From: Eubacterium sp. | GTDB taxonomy: Bacteria > Bacillota > Clostridia > Oscillospirales > Acutalibacteraceae | NCBI GenBank assembly: GCA_022511185.1 | Contig: JAFLSA010000001.1 | Span: 1 to 62,828, forward strand | Reading direction: 5' to 3' | Length of the DNA stretch: 62,828 nucleotides | Position numbers and translations under genes: made by a program | Shown: piece after piece, positions 10,393 through 50,299 of the stretch | How the letters are laid out: the number at the start of each line of letters is the position of its first letter | How positions within the stretch are numbered: position 1 is the stretch's first letter | Notes under the pieces: model-generated | Database searches by the model: none | What the model was told of the DNA's origin: nothing | Seen by the model: only the letters and a program-made list of their open reading frames with translations

Positions 10393-10585
10393 TCTTCCAC
10401 CTCCATAGATGAAATACCTATTTATTTTATCATAGATATCCGAAAAGTCAAATTATAAAATAAAAATAAACTATTTTAAATTATGTGGAAATATAAATTT
10501 CGTTTTGCTATAATCGTTGAGATAAAATATATTGGATATTATATCCAATATCGTGTGTTTTATAAAATTGACGGGGGAATAATCT

Positions 10586-27850: not shown

Positions 27851-29185
27851 ATGTCAGACCACAATGAAATTGACGACATATTAAATGAAATAAAAAGTAA
27901 AAAAGAATCTGAGAACAAAAAAGATTTTGAAATTAAAGATAAAACCGATAATTCTTTTTCATCCTTCGATTTTTCAGAAGCTGAAGAGCCGAAATTAACT
28001 TCTTCAGGCAAATCTCTTAACGATGATGACACCGACGATAAACCTGAAAACAACAAGAAAAAGATTATCATAATCGCTGTTGTCGCAATCCTTGTTATAG
28101 CGATTGTTGCAGGCATTGTCTTTGCAGTAACGAAAAGCAAAAACAAGGAGCCTGAAACAACAACCACAACAACTACTACCCAAACAACGACTGAAGTACC
28201 TGTTTTGATACTCAACCCACTTACAGGCGAAAGCGAATATAACGAGAACGCAGTTGGCAAAAGACCCGTTGCAGTCGTTGTTGAAAACGCCTATGCCGCA
28301 AGACCGCAATGGGGTATTGACGACAGCAAAAATTCACCTGACATAATCCTTGAGGGTGAGGTTGAAGGCGGAGAAACAAGAATGCTCTGGTTCTATGCCG
28401 ATTATACCTGTGTGCCTGATCAGATAGGCCCGATACGCAGTGCAAGGCCGCCTTTCATCAAATTTTCCGAGCTCTTTGATTCAATCTTTATTCACTGGGG
28501 TCAAAGCTCATCAAGGGACAATTATGTCGGCGCGGATACCGTTTTCAAAACAGATAACGTTGACCATATAAATCAGATGACCTATAGTGACAAATTGGGT
28601 CTGTTTGGTCGTGATAAATCAAGGGGTGTTTCCTCAGAGCATACAGGAGTACTTCACGGCAACAAGCTCGAGCAGGCCATTGAAAACGCTAAATTCCGAA
28701 CAGACGTTAATGAAAGCAGCTTTACAAATCTTGCCTTTAACGAAAAGGATAAGACTGTCTCAGGCGACAAATGCACGGCTTTTGCATTCACCTTTTCATC
28801 AAATACAAAAACGAGAGACTGGACATACAGCGAAGATGATAAAATGTATCATTGCACTGACTACTTGACAGACGTTGCAAGAAAGAATTTGCTTGTGCTT
28901 TACGACACAACAGAGTACGTCGCAAAAAGTAATTATAAAGGTTCGGGAAAATCTGAAATCTATTGTAATTACAAGCTTGCCGGCGGCAGCGGAAAGCTCG
29001 TAAGCTTAGGAGTGATTACAGACATTACATGGTCTGTTCAAAACGGTGTGCTCAAGGTTAAGGATTCAAACGGTAATGACGTAAGCCTTAACCCGGGTAA
29101 AACCTGGATTGGCTACGGCTCATCAAACAAAGGCGGAAAGGATAAAAACAATACCCCTGTCGAAAGCACATCAGCACAAAATTAA
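27851..29185 (+). CDS. DUF3048-domain membrane-anchored protein
   Basis: TM anchor, Thr-rich linker, NPLTG, RPVAVVVEN, ARPQWG, EGGETR, IGPIRSAR and LNPGKTWI motifs. Confidence 0.85.
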   Translation: MSDHNEIDDILNEIKSKKESENKKDFEIKDKTDNSFSSFDFSEAEEPKLTSSGKSLNDDDTDDKPENNKKKIIIIAVVAILVIAIVAGIVFAVTKSKNKEPETTTTTTTTQTTTEVPVLILNPLTGESEYNENAVGKRPVAVVVENAYAARPQWGIDDSKNSPDIILEGEVEGGETRMLWFYADYTCVPDQIGPIRSARPPFIKFSELFDSIFIHWGQSSSRDNYVGADTVFKTDNVDHINQMTYSDKLGLFGRDKSRGVSSEHTGVLHGNKLEQAIENAKFRTDVNESSFTNLAFNEKDKTVSGDKCTAFAFTFSSNTKTRDWTYSEDDKMYHCTDYLTDVARKNLLVLYDTTEYVAKSNYKGSGKSEIYCNYKLAGGSGKLVSLGVITDITWSVQNGVLKVKDSNGNDVSLNPGKTWIGYGSSNKGGKDKNNTPVESTSAQN

Positions 29186-29202
29186 TACATTTCAGCAACA
29201 AC

Positions 29203-29229
29203 AAAGCACCTGTGAAAACAGGTGCTTTT
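29203..29229. terminator. bidirectional terminator
   Basis: AAAGCACCTGT-gaaa-ACAGGTGCTTTT between convergent genes. Confidence 0.75.
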
Positions 29230-29239
29230 CTTGTTTATA

Positions 29240-30391
29240 TTATTTTAAATAATTCACTGTTTTAACTACGTTGCCGTTTTTAACATACACTCTCGGAACA
29301 CGGCGTGAAATACGGCAAGGAAGCTCGTAATTAAAGGAGTGTGCGAGCCCCGATACTTCCTCCATAGTCAGCACTGCATTACCGTCAGCACCGATAAGAG
29401 TGACCTCGTCCTCCATTTTTACATCAGGGATATCCGTAACGTCAACCATAAACTGATCCATACAAACTCTGCCGATAATGTTTGCATATCTGCCGTTTAT
29501 GATAACTCTTCCCTTATTTGTCAGGCATCTCGGGTATCCGTCGGCGTAACCCACAGGAATAGTGGCAACAACCGTTTTTTTCTCCGTTTTATATGTACCG
29601 CCGTAGGATATTTCCCTTCCGGCATCTAACGTTTTGATATGGCTTATATGCGTTTTCCACGCCAAAGCAGGCTTGATATCAAGGAGCGTCTTGTCAACCT
29701 CTTCAGACGGATAAAGTCCATAAAGAATAATGCCCGCACGCACCATATCAAGCATATCGCCAAGCACCATAATGCCTGCTGAATTATTAATATGCTTAAT
29801 CGGAACAGATATTCCCCTGTCACTAAGCATTGAAGCAAAAGAGTTAAAAAGTTCTTTCTGATTGATTGTCTTGGATAAATCCTTTTCATCAGCGGTGGCA
29901 AAATGAGAAAACAGACCCTCTGCCTTAATATTCGGCAGGGCGGTTATTTTTTTGCAGATATCTGCACTTTTCTCATCAACCTGAAAGCCGATTCTGCTCA
30001 TACCCGTATCAATGCAGAAGTGAAAAAATGCAGTCCTCCCCTGCCTGCCGGCCTCGTCAGATAACGCCTTTGCCGTATCATAGGAGAAAATAGGAATGCG
30101 AATATCATTTTTCACAACCTCATCATACTGCTGTGGTGACACGTAGCCGAGAACAAGGATAGGCTTTTTAAGTCCTGCGTGGGTAAGCTCCTGAGCCTCC
30201 TCAACGCACGCAACGCCGAAAAAGTCACATTTATCCTCAATGAGCCTGCCTATCTCAACAGCGCCGTGGCCGTAGGCATCAGCTTTTATGACTGCAAGAA
30301 GCTTTGAATTTGAGTCAAGCTTTTTCAGTATACTTTCAATATTGTATTCAACTATATCTAAATCGATTTTTGCATACGTTCTATGATACAT
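29240..30391 (-). CDS. alr: alanine racemase
   Basis: AVIKADAYGHG (PLP lysine), DTGMSRIG, SHFATAD, GYADG and GRVCMDQ motifs. Confidence 0.96.
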   Translation of the reverse strand: MYHRTYAKIDLDIVEYNIESILKKLDSNSKLLAVIKADAYGHGAVEIGRLIEDKCDFFGVACVEEAQELTHAGLKKPILVLGYVSPQQYDEVVKNDIRIPIFSYDTAKALSDEAGRQGRTAFFHFCIDTGMSRIGFQVDEKSADICKKITALPNIKAEGLFSHFATADEKDLSKTINQKELFNSFASMLSDRGISVPIKHINNSAGIMVLGDMLDMVRAGIILYGLYPSEEVDKTLLDIKPALAWKTHISHIKTLDAGREISYGGTYKTEKKTVVATIPVGYADGYPRCLTNKGRVIINGRYANIIGRVCMDQFMVDVTDIPDVKMEDEVTLIGADGNAVLTMEEVSGLAHSFNYELPCRISRRVPRVYVKNGNVVKTVNYLK

Positions 30392-30476
30392 TATTTCGCC
30401 TCTTAAAGTTCAGCTTATTTAAATATATTTTAATACCGAATATTAAAAAAGTAAAGATAAAAAACGCTTGTAAATG

Positions 30477-30570
30477 AAAAGAAGGCCGGAACATTATCCG
30501 ACCTTCCCCTCTCTGTTATTACAAACTATGGAGGACCATGATTTGAAGCGGTGCGGCCCGCCTCAAGTCT
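30477..30570 (-). ncRNA. putative small regulatory RNA (~95 nt)
   Basis: own TTGACA-17-TATAAT promoter; 5' hairpin UUGAGGCGG/CCGCUUCAA; single-stranded GUCCUCCAU; terminator GAAGGUCGGA/UCCGGCCUUC-UUUU; no plausible ORF. Confidence 0.7.
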
Positions 30571-30576
30571 AAGTGT

Positions 30577-30605
30577 ATTATAGTATATGTTGCATAATAT
30601 GTCAA
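30577..30605 (-). promoter_or_regulatory. consensus sigma-A promoter of the putative sRNA
   Basis: perfect TTGACA-N17-TATAAT on the minus strand. Confidence 0.85.
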
Positions 30606-30721
30606 TATCTTTGTTAATGTTTTTTATATAATTTCACAATTATTTGCGATAATATTCTCCTTTTAAAAAAATGAAATTATTTTTTACAGTGTCAATTTTT
30701 GGACTATGTATCTTTTTTCGA

Positions 30722-30750
30722 TTGACTTAGAACATTTGTTCGTATAATAT
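30722..30750 (+). promoter_or_regulatory. sigma-A promoter with a LexA (SOS/Cheo) box in the spacer
   Basis: TTGACT...TATAAT(AT) with aGAAC-attt-GTTCg (core 30730-30741). Confidence 0.78.
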
Positions 30751-30808
30751 ATGGTCATATACCAATGGAATTTTGCTAAGAAACATAAACGAAAGAAGGT
30801 ATAAACGT

Positions 30809-31024
30809 ATGACTATAGATGAACTTGCTAACGAGTATGAGATACAGTATAAAATTGTCTGTGCAAAAATGGACGGGCTTAAGCCGCTTTTGAGCATTTA
30901 CTCGGGAGAGGACCTTTTGCTCCTTAGAAAAAAACTTAAAATCTATTATGATATGGCGTGTGAATGTAAAAGAATTTCAAATCTTCTTTTGCATTATTAT
31001 GATGAGGAGGAGACGTATGATTGA
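30809..31024 (+). CDS. small hypothetical helical protein (71 aa)
   Basis: ATG at 30809 after GAAGGT; stop overlaps the start of the next gene. Confidence 0.72.
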   Translation: MTIDELANEYEIQYKIVCAKMDGLKPLLSIYSGEDLLLLRKKLKIYYDMACECKRISNLLLHYYDEEETYD

Positions 31025-31337
31025 TTTTGTTGAAGAATTTATGAGCCCTGTTGAAACTGAAGATAACGGCTTTGACGAGCAGAGAATACTGATAAAATCA
31101 ATATCAAAGGTCTTGCCCGTTATCATAAAAAACGAGCTTACACAAAGGCAGAATTTATGCCTGAGAATGTTTTACGTTCACGGTAAAAGTCAGGTGGAAA
31201 TTGCAAGAGAGCTAAGACTTTCCCAGCCGACTGTCAGCAGGCACATTTCAACAGCAAAGGCAATTGTAAACAAATGCCTTGCATACTGCTTTTACTCAGT
31301 CAAGCAGGCAAATGAACAGTGGCTGAAAATGGAATGA
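31017..31337 (+). CDS. stand-alone sigma-70 region 4-type HTH protein (106 aa)
   Basis: LTQRQNLCLRMFYVHGKSQVEIARELRLSQPTVSRHISTA; GAGGAGG RBS; no sigma region 2. Confidence 0.82.
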   Translation: MIDFVEEFMSPVETEDNGFDEQRILIKSISKVLPVIIKNELTQRQNLCLRMFYVHGKSQVEIARELRLSQPTVSRHISTAKAIVNKCLAYCFYSVKQANEQWLKME

Positions 31338-31458
31338 TCAGCCACCGTTCCGGTAGGCGCTGATTAATTACCGACTGATGCCTTAGCGCCTACTCTATAC
31401 CACAACTGATACAGCAATGGCTATTTTAAAGGAGTAATCCACCATTGCCAACAGCTGA

Positions 31459-31501
31459 AAACGCACCTCACAGATTATTCTATGAGGTGCGTTTGCTTTT
31501 T
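31459..31501. terminator. bidirectional terminator
   Basis: AAACGCACCTCA/TGAGGTGCGTTT 12-bp stem with T-runs on both strands. Confidence 0.75.
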
Positions 31502-31561
31502 GTTCAGGTTGAGCAAAGCAAATCAGACCCAAACCGTGTTCGGATTTGGTTTACTTTGCTC

Positions 31562-32323
31562 TTATAAACTAATTAAAACAGCCGCTATAAACAGTATAGC
31601 ATATAAGATAGGCTGATGTGCAATATAAACCCAAAGGCTGTTCCTGCCGACAAAGCTCAAAAACTTACTGTGCTTTTTATACATAGCTTCGGGAAGTTTT
31701 TCATCGACGGCGATTTTACCGACAAAAGAGCCGAAGAAGAACATAAATATCCACGGCAGAATCGGGAAATAATCGGCACTGTGAAAGCTCTTATTATGAA
31801 ACCCGAGCGGAGCAAGAAAATTGTACTGATAAATACCCTCTGGCAGATTGATAAGTCCAAAGCAGAGCTTACCGCCCTCAATACCGTAAAGAAATAAAAA
31901 CATAATCAGCGAAATAAGTGCGCCTATCCTGTAGTCAAGTTTCTTAATAAGCGGCATTAAAAGTCCCGTAATTATCATACATATACCAAGACAGTGCAAA
32001 ATTCCGAAATAAATCTCTGCGCCTGCAAAGCCGAGAAGCGGCATAATTAAGGCAGTCACAAGAGTAATAACCCCGCCGCAGACAAGAACGATTATTCCCC
32101 TCTTGACGCTATTCCTTGAAAGCCTTGAACACATACCCGATATGATGATAAACGCTGCCCAGAAAATCGGCTGAACAATACAAAGTGCATCAAAAACCTT
32201 ATATCCCCAGCCAAGTCCGAGAACGTCACCGACATCTAAAAATGCGTGATGAAAAATCATACATATAATCGCAAAGCCTCTGATTTCATCAAGCATATGA
32301 ATTCTTTTTTTATTTTCAATCAT
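31562..32323 (-). CDS. DUF1624 / heparan-alpha-glucosaminide N-acetyltransferase-like membrane protein
   Basis: RIHMLDEIRG, FGILHCLG, SADYFPILPW and GRNSLWVYIAHQP motifs. Confidence 0.82.
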   Translation of the reverse strand: MIENKKRIHMLDEIRGFAIICMIFHHAFLDVGDVLGLGWGYKVFDALCIVQPIFWAAFIIISGMCSRLSRNSVKRGIIVLVCGGVITLVTALIMPLLGFAGAEIYFGILHCLGICMIITGLLMPLIKKLDYRIGALISLIMFLFLYGIEGGKLCFGLINLPEGIYQYNFLAPLGFHNKSFHSADYFPILPWIFMFFFGSFVGKIAVDEKLPEAMYKKHSKFLSFVGRNSLWVYIAHQPILYAILFIAAVLISL

Positions 32324-32426
32324 CAGGTTATCACCTTCTTCTATATCTATGAATATTGTACCACAATTGTTTAATATTGTATATAACAAAAAAATATGAT
32401 ATAATTATTAGCCGAGGTGTTAATTT

Positions 32427-32816
32427 ATGAAAGAATTTACCGCAAAGCTTGAGGGAACTGCTGTTACAACGGTTGACCCTTCAAATACAGCAAAGGCTGT
32501 TAAGTCAGGAAGCCTTGACGTATTTGCTACACCTATGATGATTGCTCTTATGGAGGAGGCAACCTGTATCGCCTGTGCGCCTCTGCTTGACGAAGGCGAG
32601 ACGACGGTCGGCACCTGCGTATCCGTCACCCACGATAAAGCAAGCGGACTTGGTGAAGTAATCACAGCTTATGCAACTCTCGAAAATACCGACGGCAGAA
32701 GGCTGACATTTTCAGTGCAGGCAAAGGACGAAAACGATAACGTTATCGGTAAAGGATCAATTGAAAGATTTGTCGTCCTTGAAGACAAATTTATGAAAAG
32801 GGTAAACGGCGTATGA
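32427..32816 (+). CDS. FlK-like hotdog-fold thioesterase
   Basis: SGSLDVFATPMMIALMEEA and TTVG...VTH motifs. Confidence 0.85.
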   Translation: MKEFTAKLEGTAVTTVDPSNTAKAVKSGSLDVFATPMMIALMEEATCIACAPLLDEGETTVGTCVSVTHDKASGLGEVITAYATLENTDGRRLTFSVQAKDENDNVIGKGSIERFVVLEDKFMKRVNGV

Positions 32817-40770: not shown

Positions 40771-42258
40771 TTATCCTTTTGATTCAATTAACTTACATTC
40801 AATCTCAAAGATTTCAATATCATTATTCTGAATTCTTGCAATAGTCAGTTTAACTGTATCACCCGGCTTTGAATCAGCAAGGATTGATGTCATAATGTCG
40901 GTTGACGTCATTGTCTTGCCATTAACCGCAATGATCATATCATATTTCTTGATATCTTTATTCGCAAGATCTGAGGACTGGTCAACACTGTCAATTACCA
41001 TTGCGCCATCAGCGTTTTCATAGCCTCTTTCAGCAAGCACCTTGATAATTGTGCTTGAGTTATTGAAGTTTGTAAGCTGGTTATACTGAATACCGAGCTT
41101 TGCTCTGCCTGCAACATAGCCGACTTTTATAAGGCTGTTTGCCGTTGCAACTGCCGTGGAGGAAGGAACGGAAAAGCCCATACCCTCATATTCGGTTGAT
41201 GCAATTTTTGATGAATTTATTCCGACTACCTGACCCTGCATATTAAAGAGCGCTCCGCCGCTGTTGCCGGGATTGATAGCCGCATCAGTCTGAATACACT
41301 CGTTATCATAGCCGATATTTGATGAAATCGGTCTTGCAAGTGCTGAAATATAACCGCTTGTTACGGAATTCATAAATTCAAGACCGCCGGGGCATCCGAT
41401 TGCTACAACCTGCTCACCTACTACAAGATTATCACTGTTTGCAAATTCAGCTATCTGAAGTCCTGTCTTGTCTATTGAAAGAACACCAATATCTGTCTGA
41501 GCGTCATAGGCTACCATAGCGGCATCAACTGTCGACCCGTCATTAAGCGTTACCGAAAAGCTGTCGCCGTCACTTATTACGTGCGCGCAGGTAAGAATAT
41601 ACGTTTTTCCGTTTTGCTCCGACATCAGAACGCCTGAGCCTTCACCTGATTTAGTTGGCCCGCTGCTTGAGTTACCGTTATACCCGTAATTATAGAAATA
41701 GTTATAAGCGTCCGTATACTGTGAATAAACAGTGATACCAACACACGAGTCCATAACCTTATCGGCAACGCCTGCAACCGTGTAATTATTATCCTTTTCC
41801 TTTAGCGGAACCTTCTCGCTATCGTGGGTCTGCACTGCATCATCAGTATTCTGTGACTGTGTTGTAGTTTCCCCATTACTGTCCTTTCCGGCAGTGCTAT
41901 CACCTACTAAACCTGCAACAGAAGCAGCCATTCCTACTCCGGCAATAACAAGACAGATAACGAGCACGATTACGATTATCTTTGCGGCATTGCTTTTCTT
42001 TGGCGGCTTTGTGCCGTTATTACCGTTAAAACTGCCGTAATTATCATTGTCTTGTGGCGGCTGATAGTAGCTGTTCAGCTGACTTTCAGGCTCCGGTGTT
42101 TCTCTGTAAGAGTACTGATATGTCGTGTTTTCTGCCTGTGGGGGTTCACTCGTCTGAGGCGGAGTATAATACGTGTCGCCTGTGCTTGGCTGATAATAAT
42201 CAGGGTGTGAGCCGTTCGTGCTGCCTGTGTCGAACCCTTTGTTTTCAAAATCATCCAT
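40771..42258 (-). CDS. htrA: HtrA/DegP-like membrane serine protease with PDZ domain
   Basis: GSGV, TCAHV, DIGVL and QTDAAINPGNSGG triad motifs; C-terminal PDZ. Confidence 0.9.
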   Translation of the reverse strand: MDDFENKGFDTGSTNGSHPDYYQPSTGDTYYTPPQTSEPPQAENTTYQYSYRETPEPESQLNSYYQPPQDNDNYGSFNGNNGTKPPKKSNAAKIIVIVLVICLVIAGVGMAASVAGLVGDSTAGKDSNGETTTQSQNTDDAVQTHDSEKVPLKEKDNNYTVAGVADKVMDSCVGITVYSQYTDAYNYFYNYGYNGNSSSGPTKSGEGSGVLMSEQNGKTYILTCAHVISDGDSFSVTLNDGSTVDAAMVAYDAQTDIGVLSIDKTGLQIAEFANSDNLVVGEQVVAIGCPGGLEFMNSVTSGYISALARPISSNIGYDNECIQTDAAINPGNSGGALFNMQGQVVGINSSKIASTEYEGMGFSVPSSTAVATANSLIKVGYVAGRAKLGIQYNQLTNFNNSSTIIKVLAERGYENADGAMVIDSVDQSSDLANKDIKKYDMIIAVNGKTMTSTDIMTSILADSKPGDTVKLTIARIQNNDIEIFEIECKLIESKG

Positions 42259-43772
42259 TATTTCCTTTTCTCCTTTTTATAGATTGGTCTGTATGTTTTA
42301 GGAAGTCTGAATATAAATTCTGCGGATTCTTCATCATCGCTTACAGCCCAGATACTTCCTCCGTGCATTTCAACCATCATTTTCACTATATAAAGTCCCA
42401 AACCTGCGCCCTTTGCGTCAAGGCTCCTTGACTTATCAACCTTATAAAATCTTTCAAACACCTTTGAAAGCTCTTGCTTATTTATGCCGATACCGCTGTT
42501 TTTAATATGCACCTCAACGGAATCGTTATTATCATTCATATTTACTTTGATATAACCGCCTTCATTTGTAAACTTAACGGCATTGTCAAATATATTGTAG
42601 ATAACCTGATAAATCATATCGGTATCTGCAACAATATAAGTCTGGTGCAGATCCTCAAGTCCCTGAATTTCAATATTCTTTTCCTCAATCTTTTGCTCAA
42701 AGGTGAGAAGAATATGAATAATCTGATCTGATATATCGTAGTTAGTCGGCTTCATTTCAAAGCTTCCCGACTCAATCTTGCTCATATTAAGCATAGCAAC
42801 AACCAAGCGAGAAAGACGGCGAATTTCGCCGCTGACAATATTAAGATAATAATCCGTTTTTTCTCTCGGTATCGTGCCGTCGAGTATTCCGTCAATAAAT
42901 CCGCCGATTGAGGTCATAGGAGTTCTCAGCTCGTGAGACACGTTTGATACAAAGCTTCGTCTTGACGACTCAAGCCTGTCAAGTGCATCAGCCATATCGT
43001 TAAACGCTGTGCCAAGCTGTGAAAGCTCGTCATTCCCCTTTACTTTAACCCTATAGGAAAAGTCACCTATTGCAAACTGCTTTGCCGCTTTGCTCATCTG
43101 CTGGAGCGGTTTAACGAAATTTCTCGTCAGATACCATATGCAGATAAACGCAATTAAAAGGCAAGCTAAAGCGCTGAATACAAATATCCGGAGCACCGTC
43201 ATCGTAAGCTCATTGACGTTAGTCTCAGCTGTTGCGATAACCGAGCCGATAATCTGATTGTTACTGTAAATAGGATAGCCGACAATGTATGAAAGCCTTC
43301 CGCTCACGCTTCCCTTTCCGACGTATCCGCCCTCGTAAACGCTTTTTAAAAGCACGTCGCCCACAGTAAATTCATTATGATATATGCAAACAGGAAGTTC
43401 TCCCATAAAAGGCATTACACCTGATTTTTCCTTGCACATAATTATATTGCCGCCAACGTCGCAAACGAACAAATCTGCATCGATGGAATTTGAAATAATA
43501 TTAAGCGTCCTGCATATCATTTCTTTTTCAACAGTATAATGATCGTTCATATCCTGAACGATAAGATTTTGCCTTACACTGTCAGCAATCGACTGTGCAT
43601 TTTCCTTTAAAAGCTTTGTATTCTCATTTTGCGTGTATGCATTAACAAGTATTATCAGGGAAGCACCGAGAATTGTCAGCACTATAAGGAAAATTGCTGC
43701 AAAAAGAATAAAATATTTTGCAAATATATTATTCTTCAGGTACTGCCCTTTGATAAATTGCTTTACAGACAT
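42258..43772 (-). CDS. two-component sensor histidine kinase (HAMP-HisKA-HATPase)
   Basis: SHELRTP, DNAVKF, FERFYKVDKSR and GLGL motifs. Confidence 0.94.
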   Translation of the reverse strand: MSVKQFIKGQYLKNNIFAKYFILFAAIFLIVLTILGASLIILVNAYTQNENTKLLKENAQSIADSVRQNLIVQDMNDHYTVEKEMICRTLNIISNSIDADLFVCDVGGNIIMCKEKSGVMPFMGELPVCIYHNEFTVGDVLLKSVYEGGYVGKGSVSGRLSYIVGYPIYSNNQIIGSVIATAETNVNELTMTVLRIFVFSALACLLIAFICIWYLTRNFVKPLQQMSKAAKQFAIGDFSYRVKVKGNDELSQLGTAFNDMADALDRLESSRRSFVSNVSHELRTPMTSIGGFIDGILDGTIPREKTDYYLNIVSGEIRRLSRLVVAMLNMSKIESGSFEMKPTNYDISDQIIHILLTFEQKIEEKNIEIQGLEDLHQTYIVADTDMIYQVIYNIFDNAVKFTNEGGYIKVNMNDNNDSVEVHIKNSGIGINKQELSKVFERFYKVDKSRSLDAKGAGLGLYIVKMMVEMHGGSIWAVSDDEESAEFIFRLPKTYRPIYKKEKRK

Positions 43773-43777
43773 CTGTC

Positions 43778-44473
43778 TTAATCCTTTGTTTCAAATTTAT
43801 AGCCGACACCCCAAACGGTCTTAAGTGACCATTTGTCAGAAACGCCCTCAAGCTTTTCACGCAGACGCTTTACGTGAACGTCTACGGTACGTGAATCGCC
43901 GTAATAATCAAAGCCCCATACCTCATCAAGAAGCTGGTCACGTGTATAAACACGGTTTGGATTTGATGCAAAGTGATAGATGAGCTCAAGCTCTTTTGGC
44001 GGTGTGTCAACTACAACACCTGCTACCTTCAGCTCGTAATTGATAATGTTTATTTCAAGATTATCGTAAACCACAATCTTTTTGCTGTTGTCATCAGCAG
44101 TTGTGTTGCCGTTTGTTCTTCTCAAAACAGCCTTCACTCTTGCCATAACCTCTTTTGCATCAAACGGCTTTGTAACATAGTCATCTGCGCCAAGCTCAAG
44201 ACCAAGCACCTTGTCAAAGGTTTCGCCCTTTGCGGTGAGCATAATGATAGGTGCATTTGACGATTTTCTGATTTCACGGCAAACCTGCCAGCCGTCCATT
44301 TTCGGAAGCATAATGTCAAGCAGAACAAGCTCAGGTGTCTTAGCCTGAAATGTGTTTACAGCCTCCTGTCCGTCATTTGCAACAAAAACGGTATAGCAGT
44401 CGTTTTCAAGATAAAGCTTAAGTAATTCGCAGATATTATGGTCATCATCAACAACAAGAATTTTTGTACTCAT
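43778..44473 (-). CDS. OmpR-family response regulator
   Basis: VVDDD, LLDIMLP, GADDYVTKPF, RTVDVHVKRLR and TVWGVGY motifs. Confidence 0.95.
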   Translation of the reverse strand: MSTKILVVDDDHNICELLKLYLENDCYTVFVANDGQEAVNTFQAKTPELVLLDIMLPKMDGWQVCREIRKSSNAPIIMLTAKGETFDKVLGLELGADDYVTKPFDAKEVMARVKAVLRRTNGNTTADDNSKKIVVYDNLEINIINYELKVAGVVVDTPPKELELIYHFASNPNRVYTRDQLLDEVWGFDYYGDSRTVDVHVKRLREKLEGVSDKWSLKTVWGVGYKFETKD

Positions 44474-47846: not shown

Positions 47847-49049
47847 TTAGTCATTCGGAATGAATTTTCTGTGTACTGCGGATACTGCTCTGTCTGCGTC
47901 CTCTGCATCAATAATTACTGAAATCTTTATCTCAGAAGTTGAAATCATCTGGATATTGATATTTGTCTCATAGAGAGCCTCAAACATTTTTGATGCCGTA
48001 CCCGGATGTGACTCCATACCTGCGCCGACGATTGAAACCTTTGCAACCTCAGTATTGCAGACAATTCTGCAATCCTCAAGCATACCCTCTAAAAGCTCAA
48101 CGGCAAGAGGGCCGTTATCCTTGCTGACTGTGAACACGATATCCTTTGTGCCGTCTCTGCCAAAGGACTGAAGGATAATATCAACGTTGATATTCTTTGC
48201 AGAAAGCTTTGAGAAAATTTTGAAAGCGATACCCGGTGTATCCTGTAAATTTAAGATTGAAACAAGTGCAACGTCCTTATCCTTAGTTACACCGCGAATT
48301 AACATTTTTTCCATTTTTGCTGCCTCCTTAACGATTGTACCCGGTATTGGATTAAGTGATGAGAGAACCTCAAGCTCTACTCCGTATTTCTTTGCCATTT
48401 CAACTGAACGGTTGTTGAGCACCTGTGCGCCCAACGTTGCCAGCTCAAGCATTTCGTCATAAGTAATTTCCTTAAGCTTTTTAGCGTTTTCAACCTTTCT
48501 CGGGTCGGCTGTGTAAACACCCTCAACGTCGGTGAAAATCTGGCATTTATCCGCTTTGAGTGCCGCCGCAATTGCAACTGCAGATGTGTCAGAACCGCCT
48601 CTGCCTAAGGTTGTAATGTCATCATACCTGTTGATACCCTGAAAGCCTGCAACAACAACGATGTTGTGCTTTGCAATTTCAGCCTGCAATCTGTTAGGCT
48701 TGATGTTTTTAATTCTCGCCTGTGTGTAAATTGCATTTGTGTTAAAGCCTGCCTGCCAGCCTAAAAGACTGATAACAGGGAAACCGAGCTTTTCGATTGC
48801 CATTGCAAGAAGTGAAATTGAAATCTGCTCGCCTGCTGAAAGGAGCTGGTCCATCTCCCTCTTATGAGCGCTTGGATTGATTTCATTAGCCTTAGCAATC
48901 AAATCATCGGTAGTGTCGCCCTGAGCAGATACAACAACGATTACGTCATTACCCTGCTTGTAGGTATCTGTAACGATACGGGCAACGTTCATAACTCTCT
49001 CAGCATTTGCTACTGAAGAGCCGCCGAACTTCTGAACAATAAGTCCCAT
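47847..49049 (-). CDS. lysC: aspartate kinase
   Basis: VQKFGGSSV, TTLGRGGSDTSA and TDVEGVYTADP motifs; two ACT domains. Confidence 0.94.
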   Translation of the reverse strand: MGLIVQKFGGSSVANAERVMNVARIVTDTYKQGNDVIVVVSAQGDTTDDLIAKANEINPSAHKREMDQLLSAGEQISISLLAMAIEKLGFPVISLLGWQAGFNTNAIYTQARIKNIKPNRLQAEIAKHNIVVVAGFQGINRYDDITTLGRGGSDTSAVAIAAALKADKCQIFTDVEGVYTADPRKVENAKKLKEITYDEMLELATLGAQVLNNRSVEMAKKYGVELEVLSSLNPIPGTIVKEAAKMEKMLIRGVTKDKDVALVSILNLQDTPGIAFKIFSKLSAKNINVDIILQSFGRDGTKDIVFTVSKDNGPLAVELLEGMLEDCRIVCNTEVAKVSIVGAGMESHPGTASKMFEALYETNINIQMISTSEIKISVIIDAEDADRAVSAVHRKFIPND

Positions 49050-49081
49050 AGTTCAAGTCCTCCTTTATTGATTAATAGTTT

Positions 49082-50299
49082 TTAATAGTTTGTAACCTTA
49101 ATTATATTGATAACCTCGAGGTCTTTTAGCCTTTCGGTTAATTCATTTTCTGTCATAATGTCTGTAATAAATGCAACCTCGTCAGACGGCTGACCTTGTC
49201 TTGAAAGGAATTTAACGTCTGAGAAAGCACCATTCACCTGATTACAGCTTGCCTTTGCACGAACGTAAAACGGCATTTTAATTGTGCTTTTGTAATCTAC
49301 AACGTAGTCCTCTTCACCGTCACCCCAGCCGAAAATCTTTTTTCTGCCGGTGTGCTTTGCACAGTCAATAATATCTGCAACAACTGCGGAGGCGGTAGGT
49401 AATTTGCCTGCACCCGGACCGTAAAAGCACACGTCACCGACTGCATCCCCTCGAACAAGAACGGCGTTGAAAACATCTTTAACCGATGCAAGCTGTGAGC
49501 CGTTATATACGACCGCAGGGCTTACAAACGCTGCAATCTGATCATCATTGATATACTTTATCTGACCGAGAAGCTTTATAACACCGTCGGCAGAATTGAT
49601 ATACGAAACGTCTTCAAGGGTGATATTTGAAATGCCCTCAGTCTCGACCTGTGACGGATAAACGTGTTTACCAAAAGCAAGGGACGCAAGAATACAAACC
49701 TTACGGCACGCATCGTGACCCTCAACGTCTGCTGTCGGGTCCTTCTCGGCGTATCCCTTTTCCTGTGCGATTTTGAGTGCTTCCTCAAAGGACATACCCT
49801 TTTCAATCATCATTGTAAGGATAAAGTTCGTTGTGCCGTTAAGTATACCTGCTATACCCTCAATATGATTTGCCGCAAGGCACTGCGTAAGCGGTCTGAT
49901 AATCGGAATACCGCCGCCGACAGATGCCTCAATAAGATAATTCGTACCGCTCTCCTCTGCTGCCTTTAAAAGCTCAGGGCCTTTCTGTGCAACAAGCTCC
50001 TTATTTGACGTAACAACGCTTTTGCCTGCTTTTAAAAGTTTCATTGTGAAATCAAAGGCAGGGTTTACGCCGCCCATCGTTTCCGCAACAATTTTAATCT
50101 CAGGATCATTCAAAATATCGTTAAAATCCTTTGTGAACAAATCCTTGTGCACATCATCGGGAAAATCACGCAAATCGAGAATACGTGAAACCTCTAAAGC
50201 CTCGCCGCCTATTTTATCGGGAATACTATCGGCGTGAGTCTCAATAACCTCAACAACTCCGGAACCGACTGTTCCGTAACCCATAACTGCAACCTTCAT
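49082..50299 (-). CDS. hom: homoserine dehydrogenase
   Basis: GYGTVGSG, VVTSNK, EASVGGGIP, GILNGTTN and GAGKLPTASAV motifs. Confidence 0.95.
   Translation of the reverse strand: MKVAVMGYGTVGSGVVEVIETHADSIPDKIGGEALEVSRILDLRDFPDDVHKDLFTKDFNDILNDPEIKIVAETMGGVNPAFDFTMKLLKAGKSVVTSNKELVAQKGPELLKAAEESGTNYLIEASVGGGIPIIRPLTQCLAANHIEGIAGILNGTTNFILTMMIEKGMSFEEALKIAQEKGYAEKDPTADVEGHDACRKVCILASLAFGKHVYPSQVETEGISNITLEDVSYINSADGVIKLLGQIKYINDDQIAAFVSPAVVYNGSQLASVKDVFNAVLVRGDAVGDVCFYGPGAGKLPTASAVVADIIDCAKHTGRKKIFGWGDGEEDYVVDYKSTIKMPFYVRAKASCNQVNGAFSDVKFLSRQGQPSDEVAFITDIMTENELTERLKDLEVINIIKVTNY

Follow-up and report, generated by a model that had tools for sequence, protein, structure and literature searches.

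A conserved predicted small RNA of gut clostridia with an anti-Shine-Dalgarno middle, and amtB-glnK as its best-supported predicted target

The window, as the whole stretch of DNA analyzed here is called, comprises 62,828 nucleotides of a Eubacterium sp. contig (JAFLSA010000001.1), and we take Eubacterium_R as the genus and Acutalibacteraceae as the family label of the host group. On the minus strand, positions 30570 to 30473 are predicted to form a stand-alone gene for a non-coding RNA of about 98 nt (Table 1). The perfect TTGACA-17-TATAAT promoter expected on this strand was present (30605 to 30577) and was the sole 12/12 match out of 24 promoter-like sites in a scan of positions 28500 to 32500. 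The 9-bp GC-rich 5' hairpin (P1) lies at 30566 to 30543 as originally quoted, as do the intrinsic terminator, with its stem at 30506 to 30481, and the U tail; a simple terminator scan did not report this terminator. The promoter spacer (30583 to 30599) is kept across the genus in a ATTGTGCAA-like form, which suggests a repressor site overlapping the promoter, and the AT-rich stretch above the -35 hexamer may be an UP-like element or the site of some regulator.

Table 1. Features of the predicted RNA gene, its flanks, and other loci of the window referred to in the text
Feature	Position	Strand	Evidence and remarks
Predicted ~98-nt non-coding RNA	30473..30570	-	Ends inferred from promoter and terminator; kept in 34/36 genus genomes
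-35 hexamer TTGACA	30600..30605	-	97-98% per-position identity in 96 homologous promoters preselected by the same pattern
-10 hexamer TATAAT	30577..30582	-	17-nt spacer to -35; promoter scan and homologue alignment
AT-rich upstream element, partly conserved in genus	30612..30639	-	Position profile of 96 promoters
5' hairpin P1 with near-invariant CCGCA loop	30543..30566	-	9 bp including one G-U; loop common to the second form
Conserved middle: anti-SD GUCCUCC, then AUAG and 5-bp mini-hairpin	30512..30537	-	Predicted target-pairing region
Purine tract	30504..30511	-	Predicted pairing with 3' tail; alternative partner, anti-SD
Intrinsic terminator (hairpin 30506-30481) and U/C tail	30472..30506	-	Covariation and fold
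alr	29240..30391	-	Downstream neighbor, outside the RNA unit; Pfam; first downstream gene in 19/77 loci
Presumed LexA-type box GAAC-N4-GTTC	30730..30741	.	Divergent promoter; in the flank, outside the RNA
Divergent operon: small unknown ORF and sigma70-region-4 HTH protein	30773..31337	+	Pfam; syntenic in 79/80 loci
OmpR-family regulator, sensor kinase, HtrA operon	40771..44473	-	Candidate activator of the second form; regulator at 43778-44473
lysC leader	49049..49095	-	Weak candidate second target; co-fold rank 5/1738

Folding of the 98-nt strand gave -44.7 kcal/mol (z = -5.4), and 0 of 200 shuffled sequences were equally stable. The C-rich stretch between the stems had been described as unpaired; it is there, but its complete exposure did not hold up, as the predicted fold covers the seed with a weak 4-bp hairpin and forms another of 5 bp at 30525 to 30512, leaving UCCUCC 0.67 unpaired with an opening cost of 2.9 kcal/mol. 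The terminator stem is predicted to lengthen through pairing of the purine tract (30511 to 30504) with the U/C tail. Opening of the anti-Shine-Dalgarno (anti-SD) sequence is predicted to cost 3.0 kcal/mol with the 3' tail versus 6.0 kcal/mol without it, the purine tract then refolding on the seed.

Of the 36 genus genomes, BLAST found the element in 22, and a covariance model (R1) recovered the window-form RNA in 12 of the other 14, giving 34/36 in total; the two genomes without a match are 62% and 73% complete. Conservation of stems and seed among homologues had been named beforehand as a test. In 23 aligned copies, changes on both sides were seen in 9/10 pairs of P1 and 8/9 pairs of the terminator stem, so that two stems of this conserved, structured RNA covary, and the middle was kept. 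The 5-bp middle hairpin was invariant in the same copies and, because it never varies, its structure is neither backed nor contradicted by covariation. All 12 copies recovered solely by the model have the same 28-nt middle and differ in the purine tract. Searching species representatives for the exact pattern of the middle gave 101 stretches, most of them labeled Eubacterium sp. or uncultured Clostridia, with Eubacterium coprostanoligenes ATCC 51222 among them; since the pattern itself was the selection criterion, part of the invariance in this set is built in. Covariation between the purine tract and the tail is seen at one position (position 6: G-C 55, A-U 26, G-U 8, A-C 1; n = 90), and two G remain opposite U. 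One 1-nt indel together with a loop change divides the genus into subgroups.

The first gene of the divergent operon encodes a product of about 71 to 83 aa without a Pfam family. We take GAAC-N4-GTTC at 30730 to 30741 to be a LexA-type motif; a box of this kind lies within 450 nt of the RNA in 74/80 window-form loci, and the boxed two-gene operon is probably an SOS-induced module conserved in the genus. A second sigma70-region-4-like ORF was seen downstream of the RNA in some genomes (L033, L035, L060), and a T-box leader lies 3' of one homologue (L131:1743-1977).

A secondary match of R1 (L586) corresponds to the antisense of the leader of amtB, an ammonium transporter fused to P-II. This leader contains a 16-nt exact complement of the RNA middle, pairing continues towards the SD region, and the duplex of -45.9 kcal/mol beats all 1736 background leaders, which are those of the window genome as called by a simple gene finder. 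The 16-mer complement, with at most 2 mismatches, lies at most some 50 nt upstream of the amt start in 11 of the 22 amt-bearing genomes with that RNA variant (3 exact, 3 with 1 mismatch, 5 with 2 mismatches); other matches to the 16-mer number about 4 per genome, and none of 15 examined lay at a start codon. Five of the other 11 amt leaders were examined, of which three pair strongly (13, 1, and 5 of 868 background leaders as good) and two weakly (267 and 117 of 868). For five of the ten amt leaders in the window's subgroup, the background leaders that pair equally well number 6, 29, 4, 9, and 0 of 1736, and these five track the RNA loop variant, GTCATTA occurring with UAAUGAC and TTATTAC with GUAAUAA. 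The genomes are related, so these amt counts cannot be treated as independent observations.

The pairing region seems to reach beyond the anti-SD, extending over about 25 nt through AUAGUUUGU..ACAGA, and is only partly exposed. Predicted duplexes overlie the amt SD or border on it in four genomes (G011, G015, G006, G009). The site in the window genome is split, ranking 6/1736 by duplex energy and 247/1738 by co-folding with self-structure; because this leader is predicted to fold over its own SD, the size of an effect there, and even its direction, is uncertain. The trans-acting role by pairing with ribosome binding sites (RBS) that had been proposed is thereby backed by comparative evidence, namely, a conserved complement in the amt translation-initiation region that is weaker in the window's own genome, and amtB-glnK is the best-supported predicted target. 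Several amt leaders (G000 C181 above 8052; L586, L705, L708) also have, before a terminator, short hairpins whose hexaloops are of the A..G type, resembling ANTAR substrates (PMC3369931). The site for the RNA sits between this hexaloop-linked terminator and the start codon.

Other candidate targets fared less well. The original prediction pointed to the RBS of a "DUF2238-like" gene (10400 to 10408) through a 9-nt complement. The match is present, at chance level: the genome contains 21 occurrences of the 9-mer, and the gene, not supported as a target, ranked 200/1736 by duplex energy and 1085/1738 by co-folding. The label itself was not borne out by any Pfam family at E 1e-5 or NCBIfam family at 1e-3. 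A perfect complement of at least 9 nt across CCUCC was present in 6 of 1749 called leaders. The top helix in a single-genome scan (-19.1 kcal/mol) fell within the range of 12 shuffled-flank controls (-16.3 to -24.9 kcal/mol), making such a scan uninformative alone. By co-folding in the window genome, lysC, gpmI, and gdhA ranked 5, 8, and 16 of 1738; lysC offers its SD together with an 11-nt complement at 49085 to 49095, in the final codons of hom. We rejected gpmI, whose pairing is patchy over 23 genomes despite a 14-nt match in the window genome, and a degenerate seed pattern, whose counts in 26 genomes were little above those of a reversed control.

R1 also matched 12 other genera, weakly. 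A second form of the RNA in the family has the same hairpin loop, two C-rich boxes, and a terminator, with CAU located 7 nt before the first box in many copies. A second model (R2) matched 78 of 150 family genomes, one genome per genus (58 of these matches were inspected; the weakest are questionable, and one belongs to the first form). R2 was built on a wrong automatic P1 structure and scores mainly sequence and terminator; beyond families f1 and f10, the R2 matches inspected were terminators, one of them ambiguous, and alignment A4 was left out because it contained false matches. In a sample of the order, true second-form copies were present in 7/9 family genomes and in one genome of a second family; both matches outside the order in a sample of the class were terminators, and a phage collection gave no match for the second form. 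Second-form loci (n = 75) adjoin lexA in 41 cases and a spoIIQ-like gene in 32. The two forms share no neighbor gene, and both stand back-to-back with a LexA-boxed promoter (29/30 and 16/17). From the loop, the layout, and the cross-matches, the two forms are likely, though not proven, to be homologous.

The C-rich boxes of the second form are predicted to be fully exposed, with a median of 0.98 unpaired (n = 39) versus 0.65 for the window form (n = 23), and they stay single-stranded even in copies with hairpins inserted around them. Two copies of the second form lie 2 kb apart on one contig (L148, L149), each with a hairpin inserted between the C-rich boxes. Another copy (L343:1501-1611, minus strand) has kept its middle and has the 5' hairpin loop replaced by a C-rich loop. 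No conserved target of the second form emerged from a search for SD complements in 10 genomes or from tests of lysC and amt leaders. The sole widely recurring complement in that search, at rplW, is explained by the coding end of the preceding gene; an SD+GAAC motif in 5/7 lysC leaders recurred in 0/4 fresh genomes; and amt pairing reached the top 5% in only 2/7 genomes. None of the predicted targets explains the conservation of the near-invariant P1 loop. A separate RNA-like element of about 90 nt, possibly another small RNA (sRNA), was seen in three genomes of the genus (L583, L584, L585; 1501-1589) and consists of a GCAA-loop hairpin, a pyrimidine-rich anti-SD-like stretch, and a terminator.

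Second-form promoters are without a -35 hexamer; TTHAYA-type hexamers stand above their -10 at distances of 26, 37, and 48 nt in 47, 38, and 14 of 61 cases. This tandem box is common to the second-form promoters and the promoter of the regulator-kinase-htrA operon. With a matrix trained on the RNA promoters, the upstream region of the regulator scored 6.5 to 20.6 in 20/20 second-form genomes, against a maximum of 4.2 over 179 other upstream regions; the box alone reached at least 0 in 14/20 regulator upstream regions versus 1/88 controls with a -10. The second form is likely activated by the response regulator of this operon. A whole-genome scan of one genome (G181) ranked the regulator promoter 34th, behind the RNA, which is a training sequence, and an ABC transporter; the top box there lies above a 997-aa ABC ATPase-permease fusion (L620), which is consistent with an envelope-stress regulon. 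In two genera, a gene for a predicted membrane peptide of 32 to 40 aa stands behind the same tandem box and -10 (matched strand, about 1570-1700 of L558 and L562) and is likely a further regulon member. PhoB was rejected as the regulator, as four pstS promoters with similar hexamers scored only -4.9 to 3.7, and motifs for Rex, CodY, and TnrA, compared by eye, gave no clear fit to the promoters. A pstS-family match was present in 4/4 second-form genomes and absent from a 91% complete genome (G000). The second form's box is absent from the window form, whose median score did not exceed -8.5 at any offset (n = 100).

The original prediction could not assign the RNA to a family, and an Infernal-type check agreed: Rfam 15 gave 0 matches in the window at the gathering threshold, the best reaching 20.4 bits at the E-value level. 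In 15 homologous loci, Rfam likewise gave no match overlapping the RNA, and the second form gave only terminator-level matches. Full-text searches with five motif strings returned unrelated papers only, and topic searches of the open-access literature turned up, among the papers listed, no description of this RNA or of any trans-acting sRNA in these gut clostridia. The RNA was not found in the supplementary tables of PMC8040213, whose alignment files may hold an earlier unnamed prediction of part of it. Two motifs of that work, by Fremin and Bhatt (HMP2_1000 and HMP2_1945), are short Oscillibacter motifs and were ruled out by taxon and length. The RNA has its own promoter and terminator, no conserved ORF, and a conserved target complement, as do trans-acting C-rich sRNAs, and it apparently represents an undescribed sRNA family of a known kind, comparable to the csRNAs, RsaE, and LhrC.

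The csRNAs of Streptococcus consist of two stem-loops with an unpaired anti-SD/anti-AUG region between them and are under CiaRH, an OmpR-family system also controlling htrA (PMC3091779, in part). Both forms have the two stem-loops with an anti-SD between, exposed fully in the second form and partly in the window form, and the second form adds CAU, 7 nt, and CCUCCU, as well as a tandem-hexamer activator box. That box, however, reads TTHAYA-N5-TTHAYA, unlike the NTTAAG-N5-WTTAAG of CiaR, and in most cases lies 20 nt above the -10; the RNA here is mostly single copy without an Rfam csRNA match, and in the window form a consensus -35 is present and the tandem box absent. RsaE/RoxS of Staphylococcus and Bacillus pair C-rich regions with G-rich SDs, have ResD/SrrA as activator, and act on metabolic targets (PMC4409812, in part). 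The present family resembles them in its C-rich regions matching G-rich SDs, its candidate OmpR-family activator, and its predicted metabolic targets but differs in taxon and gene context, has no Rfam RsaE match even at E 10, and is without the duplicated C-rich 10-mer, as far as that source describes it, in alignments of both forms (A1, A3). Listeria LhrC1-5, under LisRK, have two stem-loops, C-rich seeds, envelope-stress control, and membrane or surface protein mRNAs as targets (PMC4132741, in part). These traits recur here, at least as predictions; the differences are one full-length copy per genome in nearly all genomes, CCUCC versus three UCCC motifs (no UCCC occurs in the window RNA), no Rfam match, and a nitrogen transporter as predicted target. 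FsrA of Bacillus subtilis is also a small C-rich sRNA, but its Rfam match was at chance level and far below threshold (10.4 bits versus 80), and the promoter alignment gives no sign of Fur control.

Taken together, the window RNA likely acts in trans, with its middle placed over the RBS of mRNAs and amtB-glnK as the best-supported of its predicted targets; the original reading as an independent structured RNA of the RBS-pairing class is supported, and its DUF2238-like target is not. The sigma-A consensus promoter at 30605 to 30577 would drive transcription of the short RNA, which the 5' and 3' hairpins would protect. UCCUCC would nucleate on a GGAGG SD, and the next 15 to 20 nt (AUAGUUUGU..ACAGA) would extend the duplex upstream onto the leader, blocking ribosome loading on amtB-glnK and lowering ammonium uptake. 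A few other mRNAs are probably blocked likewise. Expression, pairing in the cell, and repression are suggested by analogy with the csRNAs, RsaE/RoxS, and LhrC.

A role in cis, as leader or riboswitch of alr or some other gene downstream, would agree with alr following on the same strand here and in 19/77 loci, and with the predicted re-pairing of the tail-less purine tract with the anti-SD. We nevertheless regard it as highly improbable: of 77 loci, 49 have the first downstream ORF on the same strand and 28 have it convergent, the remaining downstream genes are varied and unrelated, no Rfam leader matches, and alr has the promoter-like site that had been described (30455 to 30427, a 9/12 match). 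A downstream gene that varies and is often convergent marks the window RNA as a stand-alone gene, as the original prediction had allowed. Still less credit is due to a small peptide gene, or to an antitoxin of a neighboring type I toxin; the expected 6-codon ORF is indeed present within the RNA in the window genome, but its start codon is absent in most homologues, a 1-nt indel divides the genus, and no conserved small ORF overlaps the RNA on the other strand among homologous loci.

Of somewhat greater weight, though unlikely, is that the RNA acts mainly by binding protein through the P1 loop, as a decoy or scaffold, the C-rich middle being secondary. CCGCA is the one sequence common to both forms and has no mRNA partner identified, and the second form is without a conserved target; against this, the L343 copy has another loop and a retained middle, amt leaders track variants of the middle, and the second form's C-rich boxes stay single-stranded despite inserted hairpins. 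Slightly more plausible, and still improbable, is that the amt leader is a sponge for the RNA or is activated by it, the main repressed targets being other mRNAs, with lysC, gdhA, leuS, and gpmI as candidates. The self-hidden SD predicted for the window genome's amt leader and the high co-fold ranks of lysC, gpmI, and gdhA fit such an arrangement, but the duplex that covers or abuts the SD in the four genomes named above, the patchiness of gpmI pairing, and top single-genome scores that lie within the shuffled-flank controls argue against it.

A more far-reaching proposal, which we put forward as doubtful, is that the RNA descends from an ancient sRNA of the whole family that was rewired in a single genus: the 5' hairpin would have been kept, a consensus promoter and a new 25-nt middle co-evolving with amtB-glnK would have replaced the activator-dependent promoter and the two C-rich boxes, and a purine switch between the 3' tail and the anti-SD would gate the RNA. 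As speculation, release or trimming of the 3' end would then switch the window RNA on or off.

The widespread family, the predicted target with its compensatory changes, and the candidate regulator of the second form make these proposals directly testable in a cultured commensal; the group of gut clostridia concerned includes the cholesterol reducer E. coprostanoligenes (L069). If true, the RBS-pairing role would extend post-transcriptional control in gut Firmicutes to ammonium uptake, and the family would be a natural example of an sRNA in which input and seed have both changed.
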